A stretch of 64,000 nucleotides of DNA from Escherichia phage HK6: sequence record PP724615.1. One strand, given 5' to 3'. This document shows, piece after piece, positions 54 through 63,990 of the stretch; the first letter of the stretch is position 1, and the number at the start of each line of letters is the position of its first letter. The notes under the pieces were generated by a model. The model was not told the DNA's origin, made no database searches, and was given only the letters and a program-made list of their open reading frames with translations. The position numbers and the translations under genes are program-made.

Positions 54-1928
54 ATGAATCGCAATGAAGAACTAAAGTATAAAGAAATGCAGGCGTTAAT
101 TAGAAACTGCAAAGAGATTATCGAAGGGTCAGCAGATGAAGAGCTGCTGTTTAATAATGCTAATAAACCCTCAGAACGTTTCCCTACACAAAGGGATATG
201 CTTGCAGGTGAGTTGAGTAAGTATCTGATTCTAGAAGAAATGCCAATTCAGATTCGAAATGCTCATATGATTGGGGATATTCATTTCCATGATGCTGATT
301 ATGCTGCATTAGGCATGACTAATTGTTGTCTGGTAGCTCTGGAAGATATGTTAAAGAATGGTATGAAGGTTGGTAATGCTGAAATTAGCACTCCAAACTC
401 TATTACCACTGCGGCGGCTATTACTGCTCAAATTATCACTCAGGTTAGCTCCCATCAGTATGGTGGTACTTCTGTAGATCGCCTTGATGAAGTATTAGCC
501 CCTTATGTTCGTAAATCCTATGACAAAAATCATGCGTTTGCAAAACGTTGGACTAAGGATGAAGCCAAAGCATCCGTAATGGCTACGGAGATGACTGAAA
601 AAGAAGTCTATGACGCTTGTCAGGGTTTAGAATATGAAATCAATACCATGTTCAACTCTAATGGTCAGAGTCCATTTATTACCTTTGGTTTTGGTCTAGG
701 AACTTCTTGGGAAGCACGTCTAGTACAGAAAGCAATACTGAAAGTACGCATGGATGGTTTAGGTATCAATAAACGTACAGCTATCTTCCCAAAACTGGTA
801 TTTGTACTTCGTGATGGTGTTAACATGAAACCAGGAGATGTTAATTATGACATCAAGAAGTTAGCTATGAAATGTACTGCTGAACGTATGTATCCAGATT
901 ATATCAGCTATGACAAGGTTGTAGAAGTTACTGGAGACTACAAAGTTTCTATGGGCTGCCGTTCATTCCTAGCTGCTACAGAAGATGGTGAAACTGCCGG
1001 TCGTAATAACTTAGGTGTTGTTTCTGTAAACTTGCCTAGAATTGCTATCGAAGCTGAAGGAAATATTGACCTATTCTTTGATTTGCTTGAGCTACGTGTG
1101 GATACAGCGTTAAAAGCATTGGAGTGGAGAGTTGATCGCTTAAAATACATTCAAGCTAAAGCTGCACCTATCCTCTATATGTCCGGAGCCTTTGGGTTAC
1201 GCTTGGGGCCTGATGAGTATGTGTTCGATCATTTCTATAACCGTGCTTCTGTATCTCTAGGGTATATTGGTTGCCATGAAATGCTACAGTTCATGTTTGG
1301 CAAAGATGTAGACACAATGTCCGAGACCTGCATCAAGTTTGTTCAGCGTGTATTGCAGTACATGCGGGATAGAGTCGATCAGAAGAAGGAAGAGACTAAG
1401 TTAGGTTATAGCTTGTATGCTACACCGTCAGAGTCCCTATGCGATAGGTTTTGCCGTTTAGATCGTGAATATTTCCCAGAGCATGAAGATATTCTGTCTA
1501 AAGGATACTACACTAACTCGCACCACCTTGATGTAGAACGTAAAGTTGCTCCCAATGTGAAATTTGATTATGAATCTAACTTTACTCCTATTGCTTCTGG
1601 TGGGTGCATTTCCTATGTAGAACTACCAGATATGAAACGATTCCCAGATGCACTGGAATGGGTTATTAATTATGCTGCTAGTAAAGTTCATTACTTCGGT
1701 ATTAATACTCCAGTGGATTCTTGTGGTAAATGTGGATTCTTAGGTGAAACAGTAGCATCCGAAGATGGGTTTAAGTGCCCTATCTGTGGTAATCATGACC
1801 CCGAAACTCTTGAAGTAACTCGTCGAGTTTGTGGGTATCTTGGAAATCCAGGTGCTCGTCCATTTAACCCCGGCAAACAGCACGAGGTAATGGGCAGAGT
1901 GAAGCATCAAGATATTCGAGCTAAGTAA
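54..1928 (+). CDS. nrdD: anaerobic ribonucleoside-triphosphate reductase (class III RNR), 624 aa
   Basis: ATG at 54 preceded by AGGAG; C-terminal glycyl-radical motif RVCGYLG and Zn-ribbon cysteines CGKCGF...CPICG typical of NrdD. Confidence 0.85.
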   Translation: MNRNEELKYKEMQALIRNCKEIIEGSADEELLFNNANKPSERFPTQRDMLAGELSKYLILEEMPIQIRNAHMIGDIHFHDADYAALGMTNCCLVALEDMLKNGMKVGNAEISTPNSITTAAAITAQIITQVSSHQYGGTSVDRLDEVLAPYVRKSYDKNHAFAKRWTKDEAKASVMATEMTEKEVYDACQGLEYEINTMFNSNGQSPFITFGFGLGTSWEARLVQKAILKVRMDGLGINKRTAIFPKLVFVLRDGVNMKPGDVNYDIKKLAMKCTAERMYPDYISYDKVVEVTGDYKVSMGCRSFLAATEDGETAGRNNLGVVSVNLPRIAIEAEGNIDLFFDLLELRVDTALKALEWRVDRLKYIQAKAAPILYMSGAFGLRLGPDEYVFDHFYNRASVSLGYIGCHEMLQFMFGKDVDTMSETCIKFVQRVLQYMRDRVDQKKEETKLGYSLYATPSESLCDRFCRLDREYFPEHEDILSKGYYTNSHHLDVERKVAPNVKFDYESNFTPIASGGCISYVELPDMKRFPDALEWVINYAASKVHYFGINTPVDSCGKCGFLGETVASEDGFKCPICGNHDPETLEVTRRVCGYLGNPGARPFNPGKQHEVMGRVKHQDIRAK

Positions 1929-1970
1929 GCTAATCAGCCGGGTTGCTAGTCGACCTGGCTTTTATTTTAT

Positions 1971-1999
1971 TTGCTTTCATCCAAAAATTTATATATAAT
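1971..1999 (+). promoter_or_regulatory. sigma70-type early promoter (TTGCTT-17-TATAAT) with downstream ATAAATTTGAGAGGAG element
   Basis: -35 TTGCTT 1971-1976, 17-nt spacer, -10 TATAAT 1994-1999, 28 nt upstream of ATG 2028; same architecture recurs at 8927, 11169, 21209 and 53777. Confidence 0.6.
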
Positions 2000-2027
2000 A
2001 GATTTATAAATTTGAGAGGAGAAAGAT

Positions 2028-2408
2028 ATGGAATTAAAGCCCTATATAGTTGAATCTACATGTGGTAGTTTCCATCTGGGTGTGGATGATATTGCTGAGG
2101 CTGTCTTTGCTGCTACAGGTGATTACTCGCATATAGAGGGTGTTGCATACCCTACCATTATTGGCGATTGGGTGGAAACAAATCTAGATGTATCGCCTTA
2201 TAACCCATATTGCTTGTTTGATGAAGACAGAGATGAAGTAAAATGTAATCTTGAATTTGTGTATAATAGAGTGTTAAAAGTATACCAACGTAGCCCCAAT
2301 GGGTACGAAGATATTACTTGGAGTATTAAACAGTATCTTAAAGATATATACTCTAGTTTTTCTGACGAAGACCTAGAAATAGTTGCAGTGGAGTTTAATA
2401 ATGACTAA
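2028..2408 (+). CDS. hypothetical acidic protein, 126 aa
   Basis: ORF with GAGAGGAG RBS 8 nt upstream, directly downstream of a strong promoter; D/E-rich; no recognisable motif. Confidence 0.6.
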   Translation: MELKPYIVESTCGSFHLGVDDIAEAVFAATGDYSHIEGVAYPTIIGDWVETNLDVSPYNPYCLFDEDRDEVKCNLEFVYNRVLKVYQRSPNGYEDITWSIKQYLKDIYSSFSDEDLEIVAVEFNND

Positions 2409-2607
2409 GAATGTGAAACACCTTAAATATCGCTTAATTTACAACGGACGTATGGAAACAGAAGATCTGGCCCAGTTAGCTATTAATTCTAAGGAGGTTA
2501 CAGTGCGTGCGCTGGCAATTGAAAAGTTGCGTGCCTCTTATGAAAATCGTGTTATGGAATTAGAGGAGAAACTTTATGGCATTCTCGAAGCCGATGCTAC
2601 CAGATAA
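2401..2607 (+). CDS. hypothetical protein, ~68 aa
   Basis: ATG at 2401 overlaps the stop of the upstream gene (TAATGA) with GGAG 8 nt upstream; the track ORF starts 18 nt earlier at 2383. Confidence 0.45.
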   Translation: MTKNVKHLKYRLIYNGRMETEDLAQLAINSKEVTVRALAIEKLRASYENRVMELEEKLYGILEADATR

Positions 2608-2797
2608 GGGTTTAAACGCCGCTTTGGAAAACGCATTAATGCAGCACTGGGAAACTGGCTATAAGGATGGTGTTGAATCCTGCGCTACTATGCTAGAAGT
2701 TATTGCTAATACCTTAATGGAGAAAGGCAATAAAGAATTAGCTGAGCTATTAGATAGTATTGGGCAAAACTTCAGAGAACAGGTGAAAAATGCGTAG
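2576..2797 (+). CDS. hypothetical protein, 73 aa
   Basis: ORF with GAGGAG RBS; overlapping start and stop with neighbours suggests translational coupling. Confidence 0.5.
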   Translation: MAFSKPMLPDKGLNAALENALMQHWETGYKDGVESCATMLEVIANTLMEKGNKELAELLDSIGQNFREQVKNA

Positions 2798-3626
2798 ATT
2801 AATTATTATTAGTGGTGCAGGTTTGAGTGTTGAAAGTGGTGTACGAGCTTTTCGTACTAATACTGCTAGCGGTAAAGCATTGTGGGATGATTATGATCTA
2901 GAAGAAGTATGTAATATTCATGCCTTTCGTGGTAATTTTTATCATAAAACCCATATGTTTTACAACAAGCGTCGTGAAGAGCTAAAAACTGTTGAACCCA
3001 ATCTTGCGCATTTGCGTATTGGTGAATGGTATAAACAATATCCAGGTCAAGTAGTAAACTTGACTACCAACGTTGATGACCTTATTGAGCGTGCTGGCGT
3101 TTCACATAGTGACATTCTGCACATTCACGGATATTTAAAAGAGGTTGTTGTAGCTGATAGCTACAATAGTAGCAATAAACGGATTATTGATGTAGGATAC
3201 AGTTCTATCGATCCGGATGATTATAAATGGGTTAAACCTAATGTAATCTTCTTTGGAGAGCATGCTCCAGCATATGCAGAAATGTACAATGTTTTTGATG
3301 GTATTACCAGTCAAGATATGATTGTTGTGGTTGGTTGTTCTAACCAAGTAATTAACTTCTACTGGGAATTATTTCCTGTTCTTAATTTGACTGCTGCGAA
3401 ACTTATGGTTGTTAACTACCATGATAGTGCCCTCGCAGCGGAACCGGGCTATCAAGGTATGACTCGTAGTGAGATGTACCAGCTGGAGGAACGCGGTATC
3501 CCTTACTGGAGTAAAGGTGCGGTAGATGCTTTCAGTGACCCTGATTTTATTGCTCGTGTAGAAGCTCATTTAGAGGGTAGACCTTATGTGTTGAGAAGCA
3601 AGGGAAACAGATATGTCCATAGTTAA
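2790..3626 (+). CDS. Sir2-like (sirtuin-family) NAD-binding protein, 278 aa
   Basis: N-terminal GAGLSVESGVRAFR matches the sirtuin signature GAGxSxxSGIPxFR; downstream HIHGYL (catalytic His) and PNVIFFGEHAP motifs; no CxxC Zn-binding pairs. Confidence 0.6.
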   Translation: MRRLIIISGAGLSVESGVRAFRTNTASGKALWDDYDLEEVCNIHAFRGNFYHKTHMFYNKRREELKTVEPNLAHLRIGEWYKQYPGQVVNLTTNVDDLIERAGVSHSDILHIHGYLKEVVVADSYNSSNKRIIDVGYSSIDPDDYKWVKPNVIFFGEHAPAYAEMYNVFDGITSQDMIVVVGCSNQVINFYWELFPVLNLTAAKLMVVNYHDSALAAEPGYQGMTRSEMYQLEERGIPYWSKGAVDAFSDPDFIARVEAHLEGRPYVLRSKGNRYVHS

Positions 3627-3795
3627 ATCTGTATATACACATCCCGATGACATATTTGTATGGGCAGATGGTAGTTGGTGCTATCGATGTGAGTTATGGG
3701 AAATGGACTATAAATCCGATGACTATGGCGTCATATATGTTGATACGGTTGAGTATGATACGTTCTTAGAAAGGAACAAAAATGGAAATAAGTAA
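3613..3795 (+). CDS. hypothetical protein, 60 aa
   Basis: ORF overlapping neighbours in an operon-like arrangement; Trp/Tyr/Asp-rich; no motif. Confidence 0.4.
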   Translation: MSIVKSVYTHPDDIFVWADGSWCYRCELWEMDYKSDDYGVIYVDTVEYDTFLERNKNGNK

Positions 3796-4288
3796 TACTC
3801 CAATTATTTTTCTAGATATTGATGGGGTGCTCAATTCGAGCATCTCCCACCATCATGCACCTGATAATGAAAAGATTTTCTTTGGAAGTGACTGGGTTTT
3901 CAAACCGCTTCTCAAGGCTTTTCAGGATTTTATTCGTCCTTCTCCGATAATGATTGTTGGAGTATCCTCATGGTTCTCTGTCAGGAATGAGATGGAAAAC
4001 GTTCAGATTATGACCGGATTAGGTCTTATCGATCGTTTTCTTGGTACAACGGATTTTACTGGGGGTGGATTATCTAGGGGTAATTCTGTTCTTCGCTTCG
4101 TTGAAAAGCATAAGCTCAAACATTGGTGTGTGCTTGATGATGCTGGTGCTATGATGTATCAGTATCCAACGGTTATAGTCAACGGTAGGACTGGGATAAA
4201 TCTTCAAGATTTAAAAGCTGTTAGCTATATGCTAGAATTTAGCCCAGATCTTGAAATGTGTAAATCCTTACAACAATTTAAGGTGTAA
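3782..4288 (+). CDS. HAD-superfamily phosphatase-like protein, 168 aa
   Basis: Motif I IIFLDIDGVLNS (hhhDxDGxL) at the N-terminus and motif IV CVLDDAG; RBS AAAGGAA. Confidence 0.55.
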   Translation: MEISNTPIIFLDIDGVLNSSISHHHAPDNEKIFFGSDWVFKPLLKAFQDFIRPSPIMIVGVSSWFSVRNEMENVQIMTGLGLIDRFLGTTDFTGGGLSRGNSVLRFVEKHKLKHWCVLDDAGAMMYQYPTVIVNGRTGINLQDLKAVSYMLEFSPDLEMCKSLQQFKV

Positions 4289-4290
4289 AT

Positions 4291-4719
4291 ATGTTCAATA
4301 ATGTATTCTCTAAAGAAGCTAACCCAATTTTGGTTAACTTTTGGCGTACTCTCCCAGCTAGCCTGTATAATGAGGCTATTAACTCCTTGAAAATATGGTG
4401 TGAGAATAATGAAATCTCCTTTGCTTTTAAAGATGATATTGATGAGGCCCCCTGTATTGGTTTAATTGTTCAGGTAGAGGAGGGTCTTGAGGAGATTGTC
4501 GGCTGGAAAGAGTTAGATGAAATAGGCTTAGTTTTTGCGTTAAACTATAAGCTGTTTATGCCTGCTAAGCATCGCCTCGTTGTTAACTATAAAACTAGTG
4601 AATCTCCTGGTTTTCAAGTTAATGAACGTTACGGTTGGTCTTACTTACCGGAAGAAGTAAATGATGGTATCCAAAAACTTCGCCGTTTTGGTTATCAAAT
4701 TCCGGGTTTAACTGCTTAA
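4291..4719 (+). CDS. hypothetical protein, paralog A of a tandem pair, 142 aa
   Basis: AAGGTG RBS; shares PCIG...GW.ELD/S..GL..ALN and R.G...PGL segments with the next ORF. Confidence 0.6.
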   Translation: MFNNVFSKEANPILVNFWRTLPASLYNEAINSLKIWCENNEISFAFKDDIDEAPCIGLIVQVEEGLEEIVGWKELDEIGLVFALNYKLFMPAKHRLVVNYKTSESPGFQVNERYGWSYLPEEVNDGIQKLRRFGYQIPGLTA

Positions 4720-4728
4720 GGAGGAAGA

Positions 4729-5121
4729 ATGGAACAAGTATATTGGCGTCAGATTGACCCTAGTTTGGTGAAGCGTGCGGAAAAGCTGCTACAACGTTGG
4801 TTAGGGGTAAGGCAAGCCTCCTTCACTTTTCCGGAGCAGCAAACGGATGATCCCTGCATTGGCGTTTTCCTGTCTGGATATGCCGGGGAATGGGAGATGG
4901 ACTGGAATGAATTGTCAGCTATGGGTTTAATTGTTGCCCTAAACTTCTCTATATTCCATCCACGTGGTTTGGCCATATGTCGCGTGCCTGATGACGGTTG
5001 TTCGCCCCATCTTTTACAGGTGGAAAATGATATTTGGGAGTACACTCCAGATATTCTCGCAGAAGCTAAAGAACAATTAAATCGTGTTGGGATTTATGTT
5101 CCGGGATTAAATGATGAATAA
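4729..5121 (+). CDS. hypothetical protein, paralog B of a tandem pair, 130 aa
   Basis: AGGAGG RBS; sequence similarity to ORF 4291-4719 (DDPCIGVFL, MGLIVALN, GIYVPGLND). Confidence 0.6.
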   Translation: MEQVYWRQIDPSLVKRAEKLLQRWLGVRQASFTFPEQQTDDPCIGVFLSGYAGEWEMDWNELSAMGLIVALNFSIFHPRGLAICRVPDDGCSPHLLQVENDIWEYTPDILAEAKEQLNRVGIYVPGLNDE

Positions 5122-5413: not shown

Positions 5414-5911
5414 ATTTATATTGAATTGAGAGACATTAGTAAAAATTGATTTTGCTAATTTTTCTTGTTTACAATCCGCGATACGGAACAGTTAGGCTGC
5501 CCCATTAAGGGTTGTTTTAACTGTTACGTGTTAGTTTTTAAACAAATAGTTAATAGAATACTTAGCGATCTACATCCCGTAGGAACCCTGGTAAGGCCTC
5601 GAAGCAACCTAGTGTGAGGTGGTTGTGAAGTGAGACGGGAAGAGTGAAAAACTCTGAGAAGTGATGACGTAAGGTATACTGCATCTAGTATGAGCTAGTA
5701 CATGAAGCATTAGGTGAGCAAATCTGGCTTAGCGGCCATCCTCAAGGATTTGTGCGGTATAGTGAAGCGGCAGTGTAGCGTGAAAGGGGAAGTTGCCACC
5801 CCCCTTCAGTATTTGCGATTAATTGTTGAGAAATTGACAGTAACAGTTGTTCTATTCTTTCTGAATAGTCCTAAAGAAAACTTATTTCATTTCCAACACA
5901 GGAGTATTGTT

Positions 5912-8918: not shown

Positions 8919-8926
8919 AAATTTAT

Positions 8927-8955
8927 TTGCTTTCAGGAAAATTTTTCTGTATAAT
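8927..8955 (+). promoter_or_regulatory. strong early promoter, matches the classic T5 PN25 promoter as I recall it
   Basis: AAAATTTATTTGCTTTCAGGAAAATTTTTCTGTATAATAGATTCATAAATTTGAGAGAGGAG; -35 TTGCTT 8927-8932, 17-nt spacer, -10 TATAAT 8950-8955. Confidence 0.7.
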
Positions 8956-8986
8956 AGATTCATAAATTTGAGAGAGGAGTTTAAAT

Positions 8987-9691
8987 ATGGCTGGTTCTCG
9001 CAGAAAGAAACATATCCATGAAATCCCGGATGAAGTCTTTAAAAAGGTTATAGAGCATCTGGAGAACGGTGGTACTAAGAAAGCAGCATGTGAAATGCTC
9101 GGCGTATCATCCAATCCAACTATGGAAAGGATGATTGAAGAATGGCAAGACCGCCAGATTCAAGTTGCCGAAATGAAGAAAAAGAAACGTGGTACACTCA
9201 TTGAAGGCATTGAGTTAGCTAACGTTATTGAGCAGTATTTATCTGGTGATTCTTTTGAAGAAATTGCCGATCGTAATTATCGCTCTGTAGCAATGGTCAA
9301 ATCAGTTTTGGAACGCTATGGTGCTTTACTTCGTTTGAACGATATTGTAGACCCATTGAATCCTCCAATTATTCCTGATGATGCTGTAGCAGAAGAATTT
9401 GCAGTTGGTGAGCTTGTTTGGGTTCCTGGATACCAGTGTATAGGCGAAATCAAAAAGGCAATGGATAATCCTGTAGGTTGCTACCGTGTATGGCTTCTAT
9501 CGGAAGGCAAACAACAGAACGTCCATTATATGAATTACGAGCTGGCCTCTGTTAAACATCTGGAAAAATTAGGGGTTGACGTAAAATCTCTAGGGTACAA
9601 GTGGACTCGTGAAGAAGTAATTTCATTAATTAATGAAGCTGTTAAGGCTGCCTTGAAACTTGATAAAGAAAAAGGAAAACGCCGTGAGTAG
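8987..9691 (+). CDS. putative HTH DNA-binding protein, 234 aa
   Basis: Directly downstream of the PN25-type promoter with GAGAGGAG RBS; N-terminal HTH-like segment GGTKKAACEMLGVSSNPTMERMIEEW. Confidence 0.55.
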   Translation: MAGSRRKKHIHEIPDEVFKKVIEHLENGGTKKAACEMLGVSSNPTMERMIEEWQDRQIQVAEMKKKKRGTLIEGIELANVIEQYLSGDSFEEIADRNYRSVAMVKSVLERYGALLRLNDIVDPLNPPIIPDDAVAEEFAVGELVWVPGYQCIGEIKKAMDNPVGCYRVWLLSEGKQQNVHYMNYELASVKHLEKLGVDVKSLGYKWTREEVISLINEAVKAALKLDKEKGKRRE

Positions 9692-55607: not shown

Positions 55608-55780
55608 TAGCGCTAATTTGGAAATCTTGAAATTTCATAAGATTACACATACGGGTGTGCCCAGTGGCTAGGGGGAGAATACTTAGTCTGCTAACCGCCA
55701 CCCCCGTTACTATTACCATGCTAACTATTTCACCCTGCAACCATTTTAATTGCAAGGTGAAACAATTTCAACTTTAATTA

Positions 55781-56515
55781 TTACGCAACCTTTAGTTTCT
55801 CAATATATTGTTGCGGGCTGCAACTATATTCTGCGCGTTCTTCTTCTGTCATACTTTCCCAACATAGTTTTAAGCGATCGGCTAGGAACTGATAATCATT
55901 ATCATCCTCAAGAGATTCATCAATAAAGGTTCCGCCTATCAATGCCACGCCGATTGATAGAATATCATTAACGGCTTGCGCGTCCAACGTTTTAAATCCA
56001 TATGATGCCGCCGCCGCCAATACTCCTTTATGATCATCAATCATTGTAAAATCAGCGTTCGGATATAGTTGCTTAAATAATTCAAAATAATAACTTTTAT
56101 ATACTGCGTCCTTGCTGTGGTATATTTCGCTAACCTTATCAGCCTCAAAATATTTATGCAGTGTATCGCGGGAAAATACACGGATATTGGTATCCCCACG
56201 CCCGCGCAATCCTTGCTTGCGTAGGAAGTAATAATCTGACTTGCTCATCAGGCGAGCGGTGCAAATAATGTTTAAAGTATTTGCGTCATTCATGCATTGG
56301 CGCATATATTCCACCAAAGGCAATAAGGTATCTCGCATTATTAAATGATGTTTGCAAGCCTCGTTTTTGTATTTATTTAAATTTAAATTCCCGTCGCTAT
56401 CAAAGCAAGGCGCGACACGATGAAACGAATTAACGATAGTGCCATCAAGATCCCAGATCATGACGCGGGTAATATGCGGAAAAGCGCGGGTAATATTCGT
56501 TTTTACTTGATTCAT
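55781..56515 (-). CDS. dmp: HAD-family 5'-deoxyribonucleotidase (dmp-like), ~244 aa
   Basis: HAD motif I MIWDLDGTIVNS and motif IV MIDDHKGV; first pre-early-type gene on the minus strand; start chosen at ATG 56515, which has the conserved GGAG element (track ORF extends to 56557). Confidence 0.55.
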   Translation of the reverse strand: MNQVKTNITRAFPHITRVMIWDLDGTIVNSFHRVAPCFDSDGNLNLNKYKNEACKHHLIMRDTLLPLVEYMRQCMNDANTLNIICTARLMSKSDYYFLRKQGLRGRGDTNIRVFSRDTLHKYFEADKVSEIYHSKDAVYKSYYFELFKQLYPNADFTMIDDHKGVLAAAASYGFKTLDAQAVNDILSIGVALIGGTFIDESLEDDNDYQFLADRLKLCWESMTEEERAEYSCSPQQYIEKLKVA

Positions 56516-56595
56516 TTTGTTACGTTCTCCAATAAAGGGATGTAGTTTATCCAGCATTACCCGCTATTTATCAGCGGGCAATAATAAATCAACTA

Positions 56596-56988
56596 TTAAA
56601 GACCATAAGCCAACGCATCAGCGATATAACTAATATCTTCGCCGGATACATGGGAACGAATGCCCGCGCATGTAAATACCTTCGCGCTCATTAGTTGATC
56701 ATCAAAGCAAGCCGGACAAGGCGCGACAACTGCAAACGCTAGGCCGGATTTTACGGCGTCGATGATAATCGTTTCCTGCTTCACCGTATCAACATAAACG
56801 CCGGCGGCCTTGATGTGACTACTTGCACGGCCTTGCGTATAGGCGAAAGTCGTGATCTGTAGCGCCTCATTAAACTCAATTAAATCATCAACAACGTGCC
56901 CCGCCTCAACGTGATACCGCTCACCATTTGAATAAACCAGAACAATGGAAGATTGAGCGCGATCGAATGGAATATTTTGCTTTTTCAT
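56596..56988 (-). CDS. hypothetical protein with HxE ... PCxxC zinc-motif pattern, 130 aa
   Basis: HVEAGH and PCPACFDD are reminiscent of cytidine/dCMP-deaminase-fold Zn sites, but their spacing is longer than typical, so assignment is tentative. Confidence 0.45.
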   Translation of the reverse strand: MKKQNIPFDRAQSSIVLVYSNGERYHVEAGHVVDDLIEFNEALQITTFAYTQGRASSHIKAAGVYVDTVKQETIIIDAVKSGLAFAVVAPCPACFDDQLMSAKVFTCAGIRSHVSGEDISYIADALAYGL

Positions 56989-57055
56989 ATTTATAAAACT
57001 CCAATTAATTTAATAAGGGGCATAAGCGGGGTATATACCCCGCTTATAAATTTAA

Positions 57056-58726
57056 TTATGCGAAAAATTTGCCGTTTTTAAAGTCAATCAAAGTGCGCTG
57101 CCCGTTGGCGTATGTAATTAAATGCGTTTGCGTCCAGCTTGACGCGCCAACGTTATAGCCCATATCTAGGGAACCAGCGACGCCCGCTGTGTATACGCCG
57201 CCGTATATGCTGGCGGTGTGGGTGTGCCCCGTGTTTAACTTGCCCAATTTCTTAAACTGTTTAGGATTGCCACGGCTGCCGTTAATGCCGTTGTGACCGT
57301 GTACGCCGCACTCAATGCCTGCAATTTTAAATGATTGGTCAGTGGTCAGGAAAATCGCGTTAAACTCGCAACCTGCAACCGTACGCAGCGCATAATCTAG
57401 CACGTTGAAAGTATCGTCATGATTACCGATTGCCGCGTAAATCGCAGCATTAAGGCGGTGATATAGTTCCGCATTGGCTGGATCGTCTTTAATGTTAGCA
57501 TTACGATCATCAAGCCAACGAGATAACGCCAGATCGTGGTTTGATTCGACAATGATCGTTTGACTAAAATCGCGCTCCATTGACTCCAGCACGCGCCCGG
57601 TGTCGATGAGATCATCCAGAACCTTATCACGTCCGGCTGCATACTGTTTCGCTAGAAATACACCTGAAGCGCGGTTGTGATGGTTGCGTGATGTAAAATC
57701 ATGCACGTCATGCACAAACTGATATTTTGGCTTGAGAATATCCACTAGCCCATAAGTATCACCGTGCCCCCATGACGCAGCGGCGCACTCCTCATCTAAT
57801 TTTTCAGCGTGTACGTCGCCATACTGCAAGCCTAAAACATGCCCCGACGTTTCAAAACATCCGGCGGGGGTCGCGCAAATATTCAGATCGTAAAACATGC
57901 CGCTTTCGTCCATCGTTTCAAGCTGGCGAACAAAAAATTCCCCGTCCTCGTCGAACTCAACAATCAGCGCGCCGTAATTATGCAATGCTTCAGCTTTTTG
58001 CCCTGCTTTCTGCTGAATGTAGTTTTTAAGTGTTGCCGTTCCGGTTGAGTACATGCGGCGCACTACTTCACCTTTGAGAGCTGGTACGCTTTCTGCGGTG
58101 ATTTTAGCGTGACCAATTGCCAGACCTTCAATATTCAAAGCCGTTGCAGTTTCTGCAAATCCAGACAGCGGATAGTCTGCGGTCGGTAGTACGTTAATTT
58201 CAGCCATGAAAGCGAAACGGCGGTTATTTAAAAACACGTTCTTATTGCAGATATATTTGTCAAAAGCGGAATCATATTTTACACCGTCTGCGCCTTCCCC
58301 ATTCTGGAATCCGTTTTTGTTATAAATATACTTAGAAACAAGCAAATCAGCGCCGATAAATTGGGCGTATTGCTCCAACGCGGCTAAAAAGTTTTTATGC
58401 GGGAAAGTATTATTCTGAATCGATGTAATAATAAAGCGTTTACCTTGTTTTACTTCCCACTGTTCCACCGTGCTAGAAATAATTCCAGCCGCTTCGGGGC
58501 GCTCGTCGTTTTTGATAGCTTTTACAGCTTTCGCCGCTTTTGGTTTTGCTGGTTTATTTGCTTCTAACCAATCACAAATCGCGGTCGAGTGTTTCGTTGT
58601 ATCGTAGACCGCTTTTGAAATATCGTCGCAGACTTCCAGCTTAGTAGCGCGCAGACGTTTACCATAGAAATTAAAGTCAGCGGCCAGCTTCAGGATAACG
58701 GTTTGTTTTTCTGCGGAAATAATCAT
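57056..58726 (-). CDS. A1: A1-like pre-early protein, calcineurin-like metallophosphoesterase, 556 aa
   Basis: Phosphoesterase motifs GDVHAE, GDTYGLVD, VESNHD, GHTHT; 556 aa equals the size I recall for T5 A1; location in the pre-early-type block. Confidence 0.6.
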   Translation of the reverse strand: MIISAEKQTVILKLAADFNFYGKRLRATKLEVCDDISKAVYDTTKHSTAICDWLEANKPAKPKAAKAVKAIKNDERPEAAGIISSTVEQWEVKQGKRFIITSIQNNTFPHKNFLAALEQYAQFIGADLLVSKYIYNKNGFQNGEGADGVKYDSAFDKYICNKNVFLNNRRFAFMAEINVLPTADYPLSGFAETATALNIEGLAIGHAKITAESVPALKGEVVRRMYSTGTATLKNYIQQKAGQKAEALHNYGALIVEFDEDGEFFVRQLETMDESGMFYDLNICATPAGCFETSGHVLGLQYGDVHAEKLDEECAAASWGHGDTYGLVDILKPKYQFVHDVHDFTSRNHHNRASGVFLAKQYAAGRDKVLDDLIDTGRVLESMERDFSQTIIVESNHDLALSRWLDDRNANIKDDPANAELYHRLNAAIYAAIGNHDDTFNVLDYALRTVAGCEFNAIFLTTDQSFKIAGIECGVHGHNGINGSRGNPKQFKKLGKLNTGHTHTASIYGGVYTAGVAGSLDMGYNVGASSWTQTHLITYANGQRTLIDFKNGKFFA

Positions 58727-58823
58727 AGTAATAAAACTCCATTAAAGGGATTAAAAAACGTTTGTTATTGGCAATATTGCCAAATATAACGCCTCCAATA
58801 ATAGGCGTTATAATTTGCAACAT

Positions 58824-59021
58824 TCAACTAATAGGCATCAGGCTAGAACTAACACCACAAACAACGGCGGCAATAAAACAAATCAGACCTAAACGCTTTG
58901 CCAGCCTAGATTTGCGTTTAAAATAATACGAATCTAAGTCATTTTGAAAATATGCGAACAATAACGAGGCCGCCATAATAAATAAGCCTAGAATGAGCGA
59001 TTCAGTGGGGTAAAAGATCAT
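58824..59021 (-). CDS. small two-helix membrane protein, ~65 aa
   Basis: Hydrophobic segments LILGLFIMAASLLFAYF and LGLICFIAAVVCGVSSS; ATG 59021 preceded by the conserved TTAATTGGAGTT element (track ORF extends to 59069). Confidence 0.45.
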   Translation of the reverse strand: MIFYPTESLILGLFIMAASLLFAYFQNDLDSYYFKRKSRLAKRLGLICFIAAVVCGVSSSLMPIS

Positions 59022-59078
59022 TTTAATAACTCCAATTAAAGGGAAATTATAGTGGGGAATAATCCCCACTAATTAAAT

Positions 59079-59486
59079 TTATTCACCTGCGGCCTGCTTT
59101 ACTTCATCGGCAACGCCCAATAATTGCGCCACAGCGTCCAATGTTTCTAATTTCGCGCTTTCAAGGCTTGCCAGATCATCGGCGTCCTTGATAATGCCGG
59201 AATCGATGGCATGTTTTGCAATTACTCGCACGTAATGAGCTTTACGGATTGAGCTGCCGCCGCCTACTTTGCGCGGCTTGTCGCTTTTCTGATAGGCTTT
59301 CGCGCTGGTCAATTTCGAACGAACTGACACGGGAGAAGCCGCGCCCACTGCCTTTGCGATCTCTTTCAAGCCGTCGCTGTTTGCGAATTCTAGCCCGTTT
59401 TCATTGATTAACTGCTGATACATGGAAACAGCCTGCTGAGTGTTTTCTTCGTTCCAGGAAAATTTTGCGGCTTTAACGTTAGTCAT
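59079..59486 (-). CDS. A2: A2-like pre-early protein, 135 aa
   Basis: Size (~15 kDa) and position downstream of A1 in the pre-early-type operon; conserved TTAATTGGAGTT element before ATG. Confidence 0.45.
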   Translation of the reverse strand: MTNVKAAKFSWNEENTQQAVSMYQQLINENGLEFANSDGLKEIAKAVGAASPVSVRSKLTSAKAYQKSDKPRKVGGGSSIRKAHYVRVIAKHAIDSGIIKDADDLASLESAKLETLDAVAQLLGVADEVKQAAGE

Positions 59487-59587
59487 GGTAAAAACTCCAA
59501 TTAATTTAATTTAAGGGATTAAATGATTAACATAATGTTAATCGTTATATGCCCCGAACTACTGGGGCATATAAAGTTAACACTATA

Positions 59588-59839
59588 TTATAAAACGGCT
59601 TCCCATTTTTCGTTGCGTTGAACAACCTTTACAACGTCGCCAGATTTAACGCGAACGCTAAAAACGGTTTTTCCGTTGTTACTGCGCTCATTTTCAGCGT
59701 ATACCGCGTCAATTGTATCGAACGGCATGAGCGCCGCGCCTTTAATACGTTCGGCTTTTCCGGTTAATTCATCCGTTTTAGTAACGAAAGGAATAAAAAC
59801 GGATTGACCAACTTTCGGCGCATTAATAACGTTTTTCAT
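59588..59839 (-). CDS. hypothetical pre-early protein, 83 aa
   Basis: ORF with ACCGGAGTT element 11 nt upstream of ATG, same operon and orientation. Confidence 0.5.
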   Translation of the reverse strand: MKNVINAPKVGQSVFIPFVTKTDELTGKAERIKGAALMPFDTIDAVYAENERSNNGKTVFSVRVKSGDVVKVVQRNEKWEAVL

Positions 59840-60274
59840 GGTATAAACTCCGGTTTATTTAGTGGATTGTTCCGCATTATCTGCTACTTTCTAGCAGATA
59901 ATAAGAAAAAATCCGCTCGCCATTATAAAATCAATTTAAGGAACTCCACGCGGGCCGCTATATCCCAGTTAGGGGGCGGGATGCATTATGGTAAGCACCG
60001 ACCGTCAAATTGTATCAAGTTATCGCTCTTATCGAACTGGGTACATCTTAAAGCCTATCGGCTAGGGTGTCAAATAGTTTTTTCGTTTTCTTTTAAGTTA
60101 GGATTTTCCCAACTGAATATCATTTCGCAAAATATTTTCCCATCTTTATGATGGTAAGCTATTTCGCTTCCGTGGTTCGCGCAAAAACTGATCACTGCTT
60201 CAGCTTGTTCTACCGTGATATTGTTAGCCGTTTCTTTGATTTTCATATCGTCGATTCCTTATATATAATAGATA

Positions 60275-60334: not shown

Positions 60335-60952
60335 CCCGCCGTGTAGTTCGTCATTGCCGCCCTACGAGATAAATAATAACAAACAACGAAAAAGGCGCAA
60401 CCTTATATTTGTAAAGAAATGTAAAGACAAACGCCACCGGACACCATGCGGCGGGCTGGGCGCGGCGGCCCAAAATTAAAAGAAACGGGCGCGCGAATAC
60501 CACAAAACAAAGCAGATAGGCAAGTAATTTTTTTTATTTATATTTGCTTTGCCCTACTTGACAAAACCTAAAAAGCTCGTGGCAGCGATAAACGGCTTAT
60601 CCCCTTATGATGGGATGGCTAAAAACTTTACTGCGTTCTGGGGCGTTTTAGGCCGCCTATTATCGACTTAACAAATCATTAACAAAAGCAAAATTGAAAA
60701 ATAGTTGTAAAAGGTCTTGACTTTTAAAAATCAAGGGGCGTTGCGTTAATTTATTAAATAAAATATTTGACTTTTATTTGTTAGTATGCATCGGAAGGAT
60801 AGCAGACTAATAATTGCTAGGATGATAATCATGCTGGTGGATTGTAACGGCCTGAATTATTAGCAGACTATTAATCACGGAAAATCTCATTAGCCAACTA
60901 ACTATTTCATGATATATAATATACTTATAAATTAATGAGAAATAATAAATAT

Positions 60953-61060
60953 ATGAAATCATCACCATTATAATAATAACTATATGAAATCATCACCGTT
61001 ATAATAATAACTATAAGAAATTATCACCATTATAATAATAACGATAAGAAACTATCGGCA
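60953..61060. repeat. 31-bp direct repeats, about 3.5 tandem copies
   Basis: ATGAAATCATCACCATTATAATAATAACTAT / ATGAAATCATCACCGTTATAATAATAACTAT / AAGAAATTATCACCATTATAATAATAACGAT / degenerate fourth copy. Confidence 0.8.
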
Positions 61061-61085: not shown

Positions 61086-61106
61086 TTATCCACAACGTTA
61101 TCCACA
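61086..61106. promoter_or_regulatory. two tandem consensus DnaA boxes
   Basis: TTATCCACA at 61086-61094 and 61098-61106, matching the TTATNCACA consensus. Confidence 0.6.
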
Positions 61107-61152
61107 GCACAAAATAACTTGACACAATAGGCGGCGATATGGGGACTTTTGC

Positions 61153-61195
61153 ACAGACTTATCCACAGGTTATTCCACTGTATAAATATACAGGG
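61153..61195. repeat. left copy of a 43-bp inverted repeat (DnaA box + SOS-box-like palindrome)
   Basis: ACAGACTTATCCACAGGTTATTCCACTGTATAAATATACAG: DnaA box 61159-61167, CTGT-N8-ACAG palindrome 61178-61193; ~39/43 identical to the reverse complement of 63947-63990. Confidence 0.65.
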
Positions 61196-62452: not shown

Positions 62453-62537
62453 TAACTAGCCTATTGTAAAGTTTTGTAAAGGTCGCCTTTTATGGTGGCC
62501 TTTTTTGTTATAATGCCTTTACACCGTTTGAGGACGG

Positions 62538-62801
62538 TTGAAAATTTTCCCAAAATTTTGGAGGCTTATAATGGTTGCTTTTTCTTCTTCTGACGCTCTT
62601 TTCACTGGTAAAGGCTGGGTATCAAATCGCTGGATTATTCAGGAAATGGTGCAAGAATACGGCATTGCTAAAACTTATACTACCATTCAGGCGCTTTATG
62701 ATAATGATCAAATCGATCAGCAAACGGCGGGCTTTTTACTGGATACCCTGAAAGCGGAACATTGCACCGAAAAGCAAGCCGCCAAAATTGTTTTAATGTA
62801 A
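62538..62801 (+). CDS. hypothetical protein, 87 aa (start uncertain)
   Basis: ORF followed by a hairpin (GGGGCGATACTTTCGCCCC) at 62811-62829. Confidence 0.4.
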   Translation: MKIFPKFWRLIMVAFSSSDALFTGKGWVSNRWIIQEMVQEYGIAKTYTTIQALYDNDQIDQQTAGFLLDTLKAEHCTEKQAAKIVLM

Positions 62802-62850
62802 TTAATAACGGGGCGATACTTTCGCCCCGATAACTAGGGGAGTATTAAAA

Positions 62851-63946: not shown

Positions 63947-63990
63947 TACTGTATATTTATACAGTAGGATAAGCTGTGGATAAGTCTGTT
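63947..63990. repeat. right copy of the 43-bp inverted repeat (SOS-box-like palindrome + DnaA box, opposite orientation)
   Basis: TACTGTATATTTATACAGTA (CTGT-N8-ACAG) at 63947-63966 and TGTGGATAA (reverse DnaA box) at 63975-63983. Confidence 0.65.

Follow-up and report, generated by a model that had tools for sequence, protein, structure and literature searches.

In the early region of phage T7, RNase III sites (R0.3, R0.5, R1, R1.1, and R1.3) lie between the early genes, and A/U- or pyrimidine-rich enhancers that bind ribosomal protein S1, such as the "epsilon" leader of T7 gene 10, are found upstream of Shine-Dalgarno sequences. In T4-type phages, the PeSL cassette joins a strong sigma-70 early promoter to a stem-loop that acts as an effective terminator (PMC2839356, PMC4122927), and T4 RegB cuts GGAG (between GG and AG) in early initiation regions, with the consensus GGAGRAYARAA (PMC3014915). 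Here we describe a set of intergenic modules in a 64,000-nt stretch of Escherichia phage HK6 (PP724615.1; hereafter the window), whose minus strand at 55.7–60.1 kb is the leftward pre-early (first-step-transfer) operon of a T5-like phage (Demerecviridae). The modules consist of RNA hairpins at the ends of cistrons and a ribosome-site box, CCC-A/T-GGAG, before the genes; they fail the defining features of terminators, PeSL cassettes, REP elements, and RegB sites.

As at the T7 RNase III sites, a stem-loop stands at every cistron boundary of the first operon transcribed by the host polymerase, the sense-strand RNA is involved, the hairpin can stay behind as a 3′ stabilizer, and several stems are irregular helices of ~18–23 bp. 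However, two stems in the window are of 9–12 bp, the sequences are unrelated, and the T7 sites are without a shared initiation box. PeSL cassettes are likewise stereotyped modules that recur in the spacers of early genes, at sites of gene gain and loss; in this operon, however, the spacers hold no conserved promoter, their stems are not terminator-like, and the repeated part is a ribosome-binding box. GC-rich hairpins without a U-tract just past the stop codon also recall the intercistronic stabilizers and REP elements of E. coli (e.g., malE-malF), which are expected to block 3′ exonucleases and to differentiate cistron abundance—a role that is only predicted here. REP (or REP/BIME) elements form a sequence family, whereas each stem in the window has its own sequence. 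The T4 regions acted on by RegB and RegA share with this locus a GGAG Shine-Dalgarno sequence in an A/U-rich context common to the earliest genes (six of six here) and the shut-off of those genes a few minutes post-infection, but no RegB or RegA homolog was detected here, the 3′ context is U-rich, and the CCC has no T4 counterpart. The box has the features of a Shine-Dalgarno site, with GGAG complementarity 8–11 nt before the ATG in a region left mostly unpaired in centroid folds. It would also resemble the S1-binding and epsilon enhancers, given its unstructured U/A/C-rich tract 5′ of a short Shine-Dalgarno sequence, although it differs in belonging to a single class of operon and in opening with a conserved CCC. 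Neither hairpins nor box are described in the searchable literature, which includes the BF23 genome, AKFV33, CRISPRi-ART, and Bas33 daunorubicin studies and has Davison 2015 and Wang et al. 2005 outside its scope; Davison's analysis of first-step-transfer repeats (bioRxiv 866236) contains nothing on either.

The order of the operon, from open reading frame (ORF) calling and homology to T5, is T5.007-like, A2, T5.005-like, A1, T5.002-like, and dmp. Its seven non-coding stretches (the 5′ untranslated region or UTR, five spacers, and the 3′ end) were folded against 200 dinucleotide shuffles each, and all fold far better than the shuffles (z −3.1 to −5.8, with 0–2 of 200 shuffles as good). The stems of all spacers are GC-rich, at −15 to −25 kcal/mol, and are not repeats of one another; the operon hairpins begin 0–14 nt past the upstream stop codon and are all without a T-rich tail. 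Comparisons drew on 37 loci from IMG/VR, T5, and more distant relatives, namely Klebsiella phage Sealy and a Sugarland-like contig (A1 74% identical to that of the window), locus L045 (67%), a Proteus Novosibvirus (43%), and a Vibrio phage (34%). In order of transcription, the hairpins are:

59864..59914, minus strand: composite hairpin of the 5′ UTR, ~18–21 bp, core at 59875–59904 (ATCTGCTA...TAGCAGAT), z −4.6
59527..59587, minus strand: hairpin 1 of the spacer between the T5.007-like gene and A2, GC core at 59545–59575, 23 bp in its extended form
59525..59543, minus strand: hairpin 2 before A2, GATTAACATTATGTTAATC (GATTAAC-ATTAT-GTTAATC), invariant in the T5-group loci examined
59050..59071, minus strand: hairpin after A2, TAGTGGGGA-TTAT-TCCCCACTA, 7 nt past the A2 stop codon
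58785..58813, minus strand: hairpin 1 before A1, TTATAACGCC-loop-GGCGTTATA, conserved out to Klebsiella phages
58768..58783, minus strand: hairpin 2 before A1, TTGGCAATATTGCCAA, near-invariant; L045 has CATAT-ATTA-ATATG instead
57021..57048, minus strand: hairpin after A1, TATAAGCGGGGTA-TA-TACCCCGCTTATG, 7 nt past the A1 stop codon
56543..56595, minus strand: composite hairpin before dmp, core at 56555–56584 (CCCGCTGATAAATAGCGGG), with a 17-pair consensus in relatives
55723..55767, minus strand: terminal hairpin, ~20 bp, without a U-tract, 13 nt past the dmp stop codon, z −5.8

Five of the seven window structures are irregular helices of 17–23 bp, in which the lower stem is A-U-rich, the upper stem is GC, and small internal loops interrupt the pairing; the other two stems are short, at 9 and 12 bp (59050–59071 and 57021–57048). 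The extended hairpin between the T5.007-like gene and A2 starts at the first base past the stop codon, and its lower stem is mutually exclusive with hairpin 2. The spacers before the essential genes A2 and A1 each hold such a second, A/T-rich hairpin, almost sequence-invariant in the T5 group and occurring once in the 64 kb; more distant phages have a different small hairpin at the same place. Before A1, hairpin 1 is stronger than the adjoining TTGGCAATATTGCCAA. An Rfam search in E-value mode over 50–64 kb returned two chance-level hits, none of them in the operon.

The possibility that these are intrinsic terminators was rejected on tail composition and a negative discriminant. A stem-plus-tail discriminant (d) of d'Aubenton-Carafa type is −9 to −53 for the seven hairpins of the operon, whereas nine terminator-like hairpins in the rest of the window reach +19 to +77; the U-tract score (nT) is 1.1–2.2 for the best-scoring main-hairpin form in six spacers, versus 4.0–7.2 in the nine window terminators. 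The spacer before A1 scores best with its weaker second hairpin, which adjoins a non-conserved T6 run (nT 3.98, d −15.9). Elsewhere in the window, spacer hairpins are as a rule canonical terminators ending in a T-rich tail, whereas those of this operon all start 1–13 nt past a stop codon and have no such tail. No U-tract was found at the operon hairpin positions in the relatives examined, and no terminator is annotated at them in the T5 or Sealy record. In T5, dmp ends ~120 nt from the genome end, so that transcripts can run off and the final hairpin is not needed for termination; given this run-off, the large final hairpin makes most sense as a 3′ protector. Past the terminal hairpin, at ~55690–55722 (minus strand), lies a conserved TTAGC(A/T)TG(G/C)TAA(T/G)... 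followed by a G-rich GGG(T/C)GG, also present in L003–L045. This stretch is kept even where the hairpin type differs, and is near the terminal-repeat boundary and genome end.

The strand that folds was assessed from the best hairpin within 70 nt past each stop codon in 172 unique sequences, in which folding of the sense strand is favored over that of its complement by a mean of 2.3 kcal/mol. G.U pairs are more numerous in the sense than in the antisense fold after the T5.002-like gene (64 versus 6), dmp (74 versus 6), the T5.005-like gene (26 versus 7), and A2 (21 versus 11). A given pair in the alignments may be G.U in some sequences and G-C or A-U in others, whereas A.C cells are rare. Because a sense-strand G.U corresponds to an A.C mismatch on the other strand, these data favor folding of the mRNA over DNA cruciforms, antisense RNA, or protein operators.

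Covariation was compared with 500 shuffles, which are uncorrected for phylogeny, and with slid controls, which are phylogeny-corrected; the two agree, and both are exceeded by three hairpins, for one of which the extended form was tested as well:

T5.007-like to A2, core hairpin 1 plus hairpin 2 (n = 28): 18 pairs, 6 with double changes; 0.187 versus 0.071 in shuffles (0/500), slid controls ≤0.057
T5.007-like to A2, extended form (n = 28): 23 pairs, 8 with double changes; 0.191 versus 0.085 (0/500), slid controls ≤0.054
T5.002-like to dmp (n = 24): 17 pairs, 7 with double changes; 0.258 versus 0.139 (0/500), slid controls ≤0.082
After dmp (n = 26): 12 pairs, 8 with double changes; 0.542 versus 0.228 (0/500), slid controls ≤0.133

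All four Watson-Crick types occur at one pair of the hairpin between the T5.007-like gene and A2, the extended form of which has 94.6% of cells paired; lower stems are mostly kept in relatives (94.6%–95.8% of cells paired). The hairpin after dmp exists as two types, and its double changes span both. Alignments were split by hairpin type, as RNAalifold yields no structure for non-homologous types aligned jointly. In the 5′ UTR, 6 of the 18 pairs show compensatory changes (21 relatives, RNAalifold). Hairpin 1 before A1 has compensatory changes in L045 and tolerates 16-nt loop insertions, and the 59050–59071 hairpin after A2 shows one U-A to C-G compensation. At this same site, eight relatives carry an unrelated 18-bp hairpin that itself has compensatory changes. 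Sealy, at the position of hairpin 2 before A2, has GGCTA...TAGCC, which differs by two compensatory pairs. Unrelated hairpins replace those of the window at three positions in relatives, including after A1, and loop sequences vary freely. Given the compensatory changes, drifting loops, replacement of one hairpin by another, and the sense-biased G.U pairs, the hairpins are RNA structures.

The first-pass annotation of this DNA, made from the letters alone, had listed six dyads and preferred RNA structures to a shared protein operator. All six dyads are present, in spacers that fold as described above, and the preference holds: the differing stems covary (0.19–0.54 versus 0.07–0.23 in shuffles, 0/500, with slid controls ≤0.13 in the compensatory-change comparison it had proposed for T5-like relatives). 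Three hairpins, at 58785–58813, 59525–59543, and 55723–55767, were missing from its list. A shared protein operator was rejected, as the stems all differ and each invariant A/T dyad has a single copy in 64 kb.

The arrangement extends beyond the T5 group. In the Klebsiella, Proteus, and L045 relatives, a stop codon is followed by a hairpin without a U-tract, the CCC-A/T-GGAG box, and the ATG; in the Vibrio relative, the hairpins are kept and the box is not. The insertion point of accessory genes (two kinds of T5.003-like gene, an HNH endonuclease gene, and a partial duplication) is always downstream of a hairpin and upstream of the box that follows it; the core gene behind the insert keeps its box unchanged. 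In the spacer after A1 of one locus (L014:5675–6275), an HNH endonuclease gene is inserted before the T5.002-like gene. Its GGAGG is sequestered in a perfect hairpin, CCTCCAATTAAT-gagataat-ATTAATTGGAGG (~5703–5741), which reuses the box sequence TTAATTGGAG, and the HNH stop codon falls within the CCCTTATTAA of the next box. A second locus (L025:5666–6146) carries a tandem partial duplication of the 5′ part of a T5.003-like gene together with its ribosome site, and the duplication junction adjoins the 3′ arm of the hairpin after A1.

All six gene starts named in the first-pass annotation (56515, 56988, 58726, 59021, 59486, and 59839) are correct by ORF calling and homology to T5 genes, and GGAG precedes every one of them; the distance of 11–13 nt given there is slightly short, as the first G lies 12–15 nt 5′ of the A of the ATG (a spacing of 8–11 nt between GGAG and ATG). 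The near-identical context that it described is exact (TTAATTGGAGTT) at three of the six genes, and the other three carry the variants TTTAATGGAGTTTT, TTTATTGGAGAACG, and AAACCGGAGTTTA. It had missed the upstream extension: the common context reads CCC, an A/T-rich stretch, and then (T)GGAG(T). All six genes have (T/C)GGAG, with TT directly 3′ of it in five and a TTTTAT-like 3′ context in five of six. The 10-mer TTAATTGGAG has three copies in the 64 kb, both strands counted, all within the operon; ribosome sites elsewhere in the window are mostly of the AGGAG, GAGGA, or AAGGA type. The initiation regions are:

59837..59865, minus strand: T5.007-like initiation region, CCACTAAATAAACCGGAGTTTATACC-ATG, with CCCC here in most relatives
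59484..59517, minus strand: A2 initiation box, CCCTTAAATTAAATTAATTGGAGTTTTTACC-ATG (box scan)
59019..59043, minus strand: initiation box of the T5.005-like gene (65-aa membrane protein), CCCTTTAATTGGAGTTATTAAA-ATG (box scan)
58724..58749, minus strand: A1 initiation box, CCCTTTAATGGAGTTTTATTACT-ATG (box scan)
56986..57020, minus strand: T5.002-like initiation box, CCCCTTATTAAATTAATTGGAGTTTTATAAAT-ATG, constant whatever inserts upstream
56513..56539, minus strand: dmp initiation box, CCCTTTATTGGAGAACGTAACAAA-ATG (box scan)

Searched for as CCC, 4–20 mostly A/T bases, and GGAG, the box has 13 copies in 128 kb, versus 4.9 ± 2.3 in Markov shuffles. Seven of the 13 precede genes: five in the leftward operon, one before 62571 in the rightward pre-early operon, and one elsewhere. 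Among the 73 genes called in the window by an ORF, codon-usage, and Shine-Dalgarno procedure, which served for the comparison of boxes and hairpins, the box is carried by five of the six operon genes versus two of the ~67 others. The T5 first-step-transfer region has six gene-associated boxes (five leftward genes and T5.012), and the T5 early region (50 kb, ~90 genes) has a single one. The box is thus almost exclusive to pre-early genes in both the window and T5, and it is present in the Klebsiella, Proteus, and L045 relatives examined (A1 identity 43%–74%). On the plus strand, the rightward pre-early operon has a box copy at 62549–62563, ahead of the gene at 62571, a GC hairpin at 62809–62829 that lacks a U-tract and lies 7 nt past a stop codon, and a canonical terminator at 62478–62503 that is annotated in T5 too. 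With both a box and a hairpin lacking a U-tract in this operon, the module is not strictly confined to the leftward one.

In centroid folds, the box is fully unpaired in two spacers and weakly paired (at most 2 pairs) in four; a 6-bp local stem covers part of it in the 5′ UTR. Some folds predict a CCC:GG mini-helix over the Shine-Dalgarno sequence, the pairs of which never vary and hence offer no covariation support. The flanks of the GGAG add no anti-Shine-Dalgarno pairing; their identity is 0.51 within a genome versus 0.43 between orthologs of different genera (p ~ 0.01–0.03). Concerted evolution of the flanks was considered and set aside, the signal being weak and confounded by A/T richness; no weight is placed on it.

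Expression values are available as gene-level transcripts per million (TPM) from RNA sequencing of the Tequintavirus Bas33 at 20 min post-infection (PMC13250531, Dataset S1, "Max group mean"). In operon order these are 12199 for the T5.007-like gene, 5207 for A2, 1171 for the T5.005-like gene, 4925 for A1, 1143 for the T5.003-like gene, 4425 for the T5.002-like gene, and 2218 for dmp, with 1232 for the T5.008-like gene upstream. The drop from the first to the second cistron is 2.3-fold, and other downstream genes are as abundant as upstream ones. These data suggest that transcription reads through the hairpins and that abundance along the operon is non-monotonic; because abundance rises downstream, termination alone cannot be the source, and either differential stability of segments or internal promoters could be. 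In the same dataset (bas33_0178–0185), the T5.005-like and T5.003-like cistrons are ~four-fold below both neighbors. Cistron size is not behind these low levels, as the equally small first cistron is the most abundant.

We tentatively favor, at a little short of an even chance, an interpretation in which these conserved, sense-biased hairpins, none of them terminator-like, serve as decay barriers or processing boundaries, and in which the pre-early-specific box gives each cistron an open, S1-friendly ribosome site. Host RNA polymerase would transcribe the operon as one long pre-early mRNA, in which each cistron would end in a sense-strand hairpin with a GC core and A-U extensions, leaving transcription unterminated. 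Such hairpins may punctuate the message as barriers against 3′-to-5′ exonucleases and as the limits of endonucleolytic processing within the single-stranded, A/U-rich linker beside each of them, with RNase III cutting of the longer composite stems also conceivable; individual stability and abundance for each cistron would be the outcome. Past the hairpin, a core cistron would open with a structure-free pyrimidine- and A/U-rich leader and the fixed (T)GGAG(T) Shine-Dalgarno sequence, and the box may act as an enhancer, drawing in 30S subunits and protein S1 efficiently against competition from host mRNA during the first minutes after injection. Taken together, hairpins and box would place the operon genes under coordinated post-transcriptional control. 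As hairpin 2 before A2 is mutually exclusive with the lower stem adjacent to the stop codon, one may speculate that a terminating ribosome toggles the fold of this spacer between the long hairpin and hairpin 2.

The composite hairpins could alternatively be RNase III processing sites of the T7 early type, yielding monocistronic mRNAs with a 3′ hairpin. This would accord with the 17–23 bp irregular helices of five of the seven structures, with the ~18-bp alternative between A2 and the T5.005-like gene in relatives, with lower stems that are largely maintained, and with a hairpin at every cistron boundary, as is established for T7. However, the 9- and 12-bp window stems, like the 6–8 bp stems found after A1 in several relatives, are too short for RNase III, which therefore cannot account for all of the structures; moreover, in the hairpin between the T5.007-like gene and A2, the lower stem competes with the conserved hairpin 2. 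We regard RNase III processing as unlikely, if the most plausible of the alternatives. Leaky intrinsic terminators or attenuators, producing a gradient from promoter-proximal to promoter-distal genes, are disfavored here; attenuators were among the options of the first-pass annotation. The 2.3-fold drop after the first Bas33 cistron and moderately T-containing tails in two spacers (TATAATTTCCC after A2, GGCGTTATATTTGG before A1) speak for attenuation, but all seven hairpins are negative on a discriminant that gives clearly positive values to terminators of the same genome, U-tracts are missing at these positions in every relative examined, the last hairpin precedes a run-off end in T5, and the RNA sequencing points to read-through, with abundance climbing again downstream (1171 to 4925 and 1143 to 4425), which is impossible by termination. 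We consider a leaky-terminator role improbable.

Comparably doubtful is a box that serves as the operator of a trans-acting factor, a RegA-like repressor or RegB-like nuclease switching the core pre-early cistrons jointly, with hairpins that insulate the individual boxes or tie each of them to termination of the preceding cistron. The confinement of the box to pre-early genes and its retention in genera with A1 only 43%–74% identical would fit such a factor, as would GGAG flanks that contribute nothing to anti-Shine-Dalgarno pairing and are slightly genome-specific, and lower stems that start at the stop codon and must be melted by terminating ribosomes. T4 RegB provides a precedent in its targeting of GGAG in early initiation regions (PMC3014915), and T5 pre-early shut-off requires A1 by a mechanism that is unexplained (PMC10644984). 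Against this, Pfam searches found no RNA-binding or RegB-like domain in 12 pre-early proteins, the U-rich 3′ context differs from the A-rich RegB consensus, the within-genome similarity of the flanks is weak and confounded by A/T richness, and a strong open ribosome site is a simpler account of the same data. A version in which the box marks a translational regulon of T5.007, A2, T5.005, A1, T5.002, and dmp, switched off jointly by a dedicated phage or host factor, seems to us just as improbable as attenuation. The stop-codon-adjacent hairpins would then make access to the box depend on translation of the preceding cistron, the candidate switch being the 23-bp hairpin versus hairpin 2 between the T5.007-like gene and A2, and the regulon would supply the missing mechanism of the A1-dependent shut-off of pre-early protein synthesis. 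Finally, the elements could act in the DNA, as recombination joints for gene cassettes, as cruciforms, or as sites for a phage DNA-binding protein such as A2. Extra genes do insert exactly between hairpin and next box, hairpin types are exchanged among relatives, and the two A/T-rich dyads before A2 and A1 are invariant. Yet gene gain is expected at gene boundaries anyway, the common sequence is merely ~10–14 nt, the stems are mutually different, each invariant dyad is unique in the window, and neither DNA nor the opposite strand could pair where the sense strand has G.U; a DNA-level role is very unlikely.

Several observations weigh against the favored interpretation of decay barriers and open ribosome sites. 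Strand asymmetry is absent from two of the six hairpin positions (those following T5.007 and A1), and the role of the CCC element has no explanation in Shine-Dalgarno pairing. The Bas33 values are gene-level and date from 20 min, when the pre-early phase would normally be long over; the rebounds in abundance could also stem from internal promoters, and the two least abundant cistrons also have 3′ hairpins, which a simple protection model does not predict. Liang, Rudd and Deutscher reportedly found in 2015 that, at E. coli REP elements, ribosomes are stalled by a stable hairpin lying within 15 nt of the stop codon.

The pre-early operon encodes proteins for host-DNA destruction, host shut-down, and second-step DNA transfer. 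Several of these proteins are toxic; they are made in controlled amounts and switched off a few minutes into infection. The seven to nine hairpins and the 13–23-nt ribosome-site box are defined, conserved cis-elements open to mutational dissection, and are candidate natural insulator and ribosome-site parts for synthetic operons. For annotation, the consequence is that pre-early hairpins should not be labeled terminators. If they merely protect mRNA and the box merely makes initiation efficient, the system would be tidy but ordinary operon punctuation.

The closest record to the operon region is Salmonella phage SP01, at 94% DNA identity. T5.003, which lies between A1 and T5.002 in T5, is absent from the window. 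Matches of the six operon proteins to PHROGs and of 12 pre-early proteins to Pfam are limited to DUFs and to DNA-binding, membrane, transfer, and "polynucleotide kinase"-family entries. The genes and the putative promoter are:

60045..60073, minus strand: promoter-like TTGACA-17-TAAGAT upstream of the operon, matching the position of P-D/E 20 as annotated in T5
59588..59839, minus strand: T5.007-like gene, 83 aa, DUF7177 (homology, Pfam)
59079..59486, minus strand: A2, DNA-binding protein (homology, PHROGs)
58824..59021, minus strand: T5.005-like gene, 65-aa membrane protein (homology, PHROGs)
57056..58726, minus strand: A1, DNA transfer protein (homology, PHROGs)
56596..56988, minus strand: T5.002-like gene, 130 aa (homology, PHROGs)
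55781..56515, minus strand: dmp, 5′-deoxynucleotidase, the final gene of the operon (T5 annotation, homology, PHROGs)

T5 has promoters P-D/E 20 and P-H 22 annotated upstream of this operon; its record marks neither a terminator nor any other RNA feature inside the operon. A transcription start predicted from the TTGACA-17-TAAGAT site would imply a 5′ UTR of roughly 200 nt. As for internal promoters, two weak, threshold-level matches (9 of 12) only touch operon spacers, and the 33 promoter-like matches in the region are not above chance (26.4 ± 4.7 in shuffles). The TATTAT of the promoter-like match before A1 sits in a hairpin loop that differs among relatives. dmp matches a PHROG family labeled "polynucleotide kinase" (phrog_415, E 1e-56), and the homolog in the Vibrio relative is annotated likewise; the label probably reflects a common phosphatase fold and not kinase activity.

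Upstream of the gene at 8987, at 8919–8986 on the plus strand, the window contains ...TTTCAGGAAAATTTTTCTGTATAATAGATTCATAAATTTGAGAGAGGAG..., a region that looks like the classical strong T5 promoter P-N25 of expression vectors. Between the divergent pre-early operons (60941–61051 and 61086–61167) lies a 31-nt tandem repeat of 3.6 copies. Three perfect DnaA boxes (TTATCCACA) fall within ~80 nt there and a fourth at 63975–63983, near the window end, for a total of 4 in the window versus 0.68 expected. Repeat regions with DnaA boxes have been described in T5-like phages by Davison (bioRxiv 866236), and the region of the window matches them.

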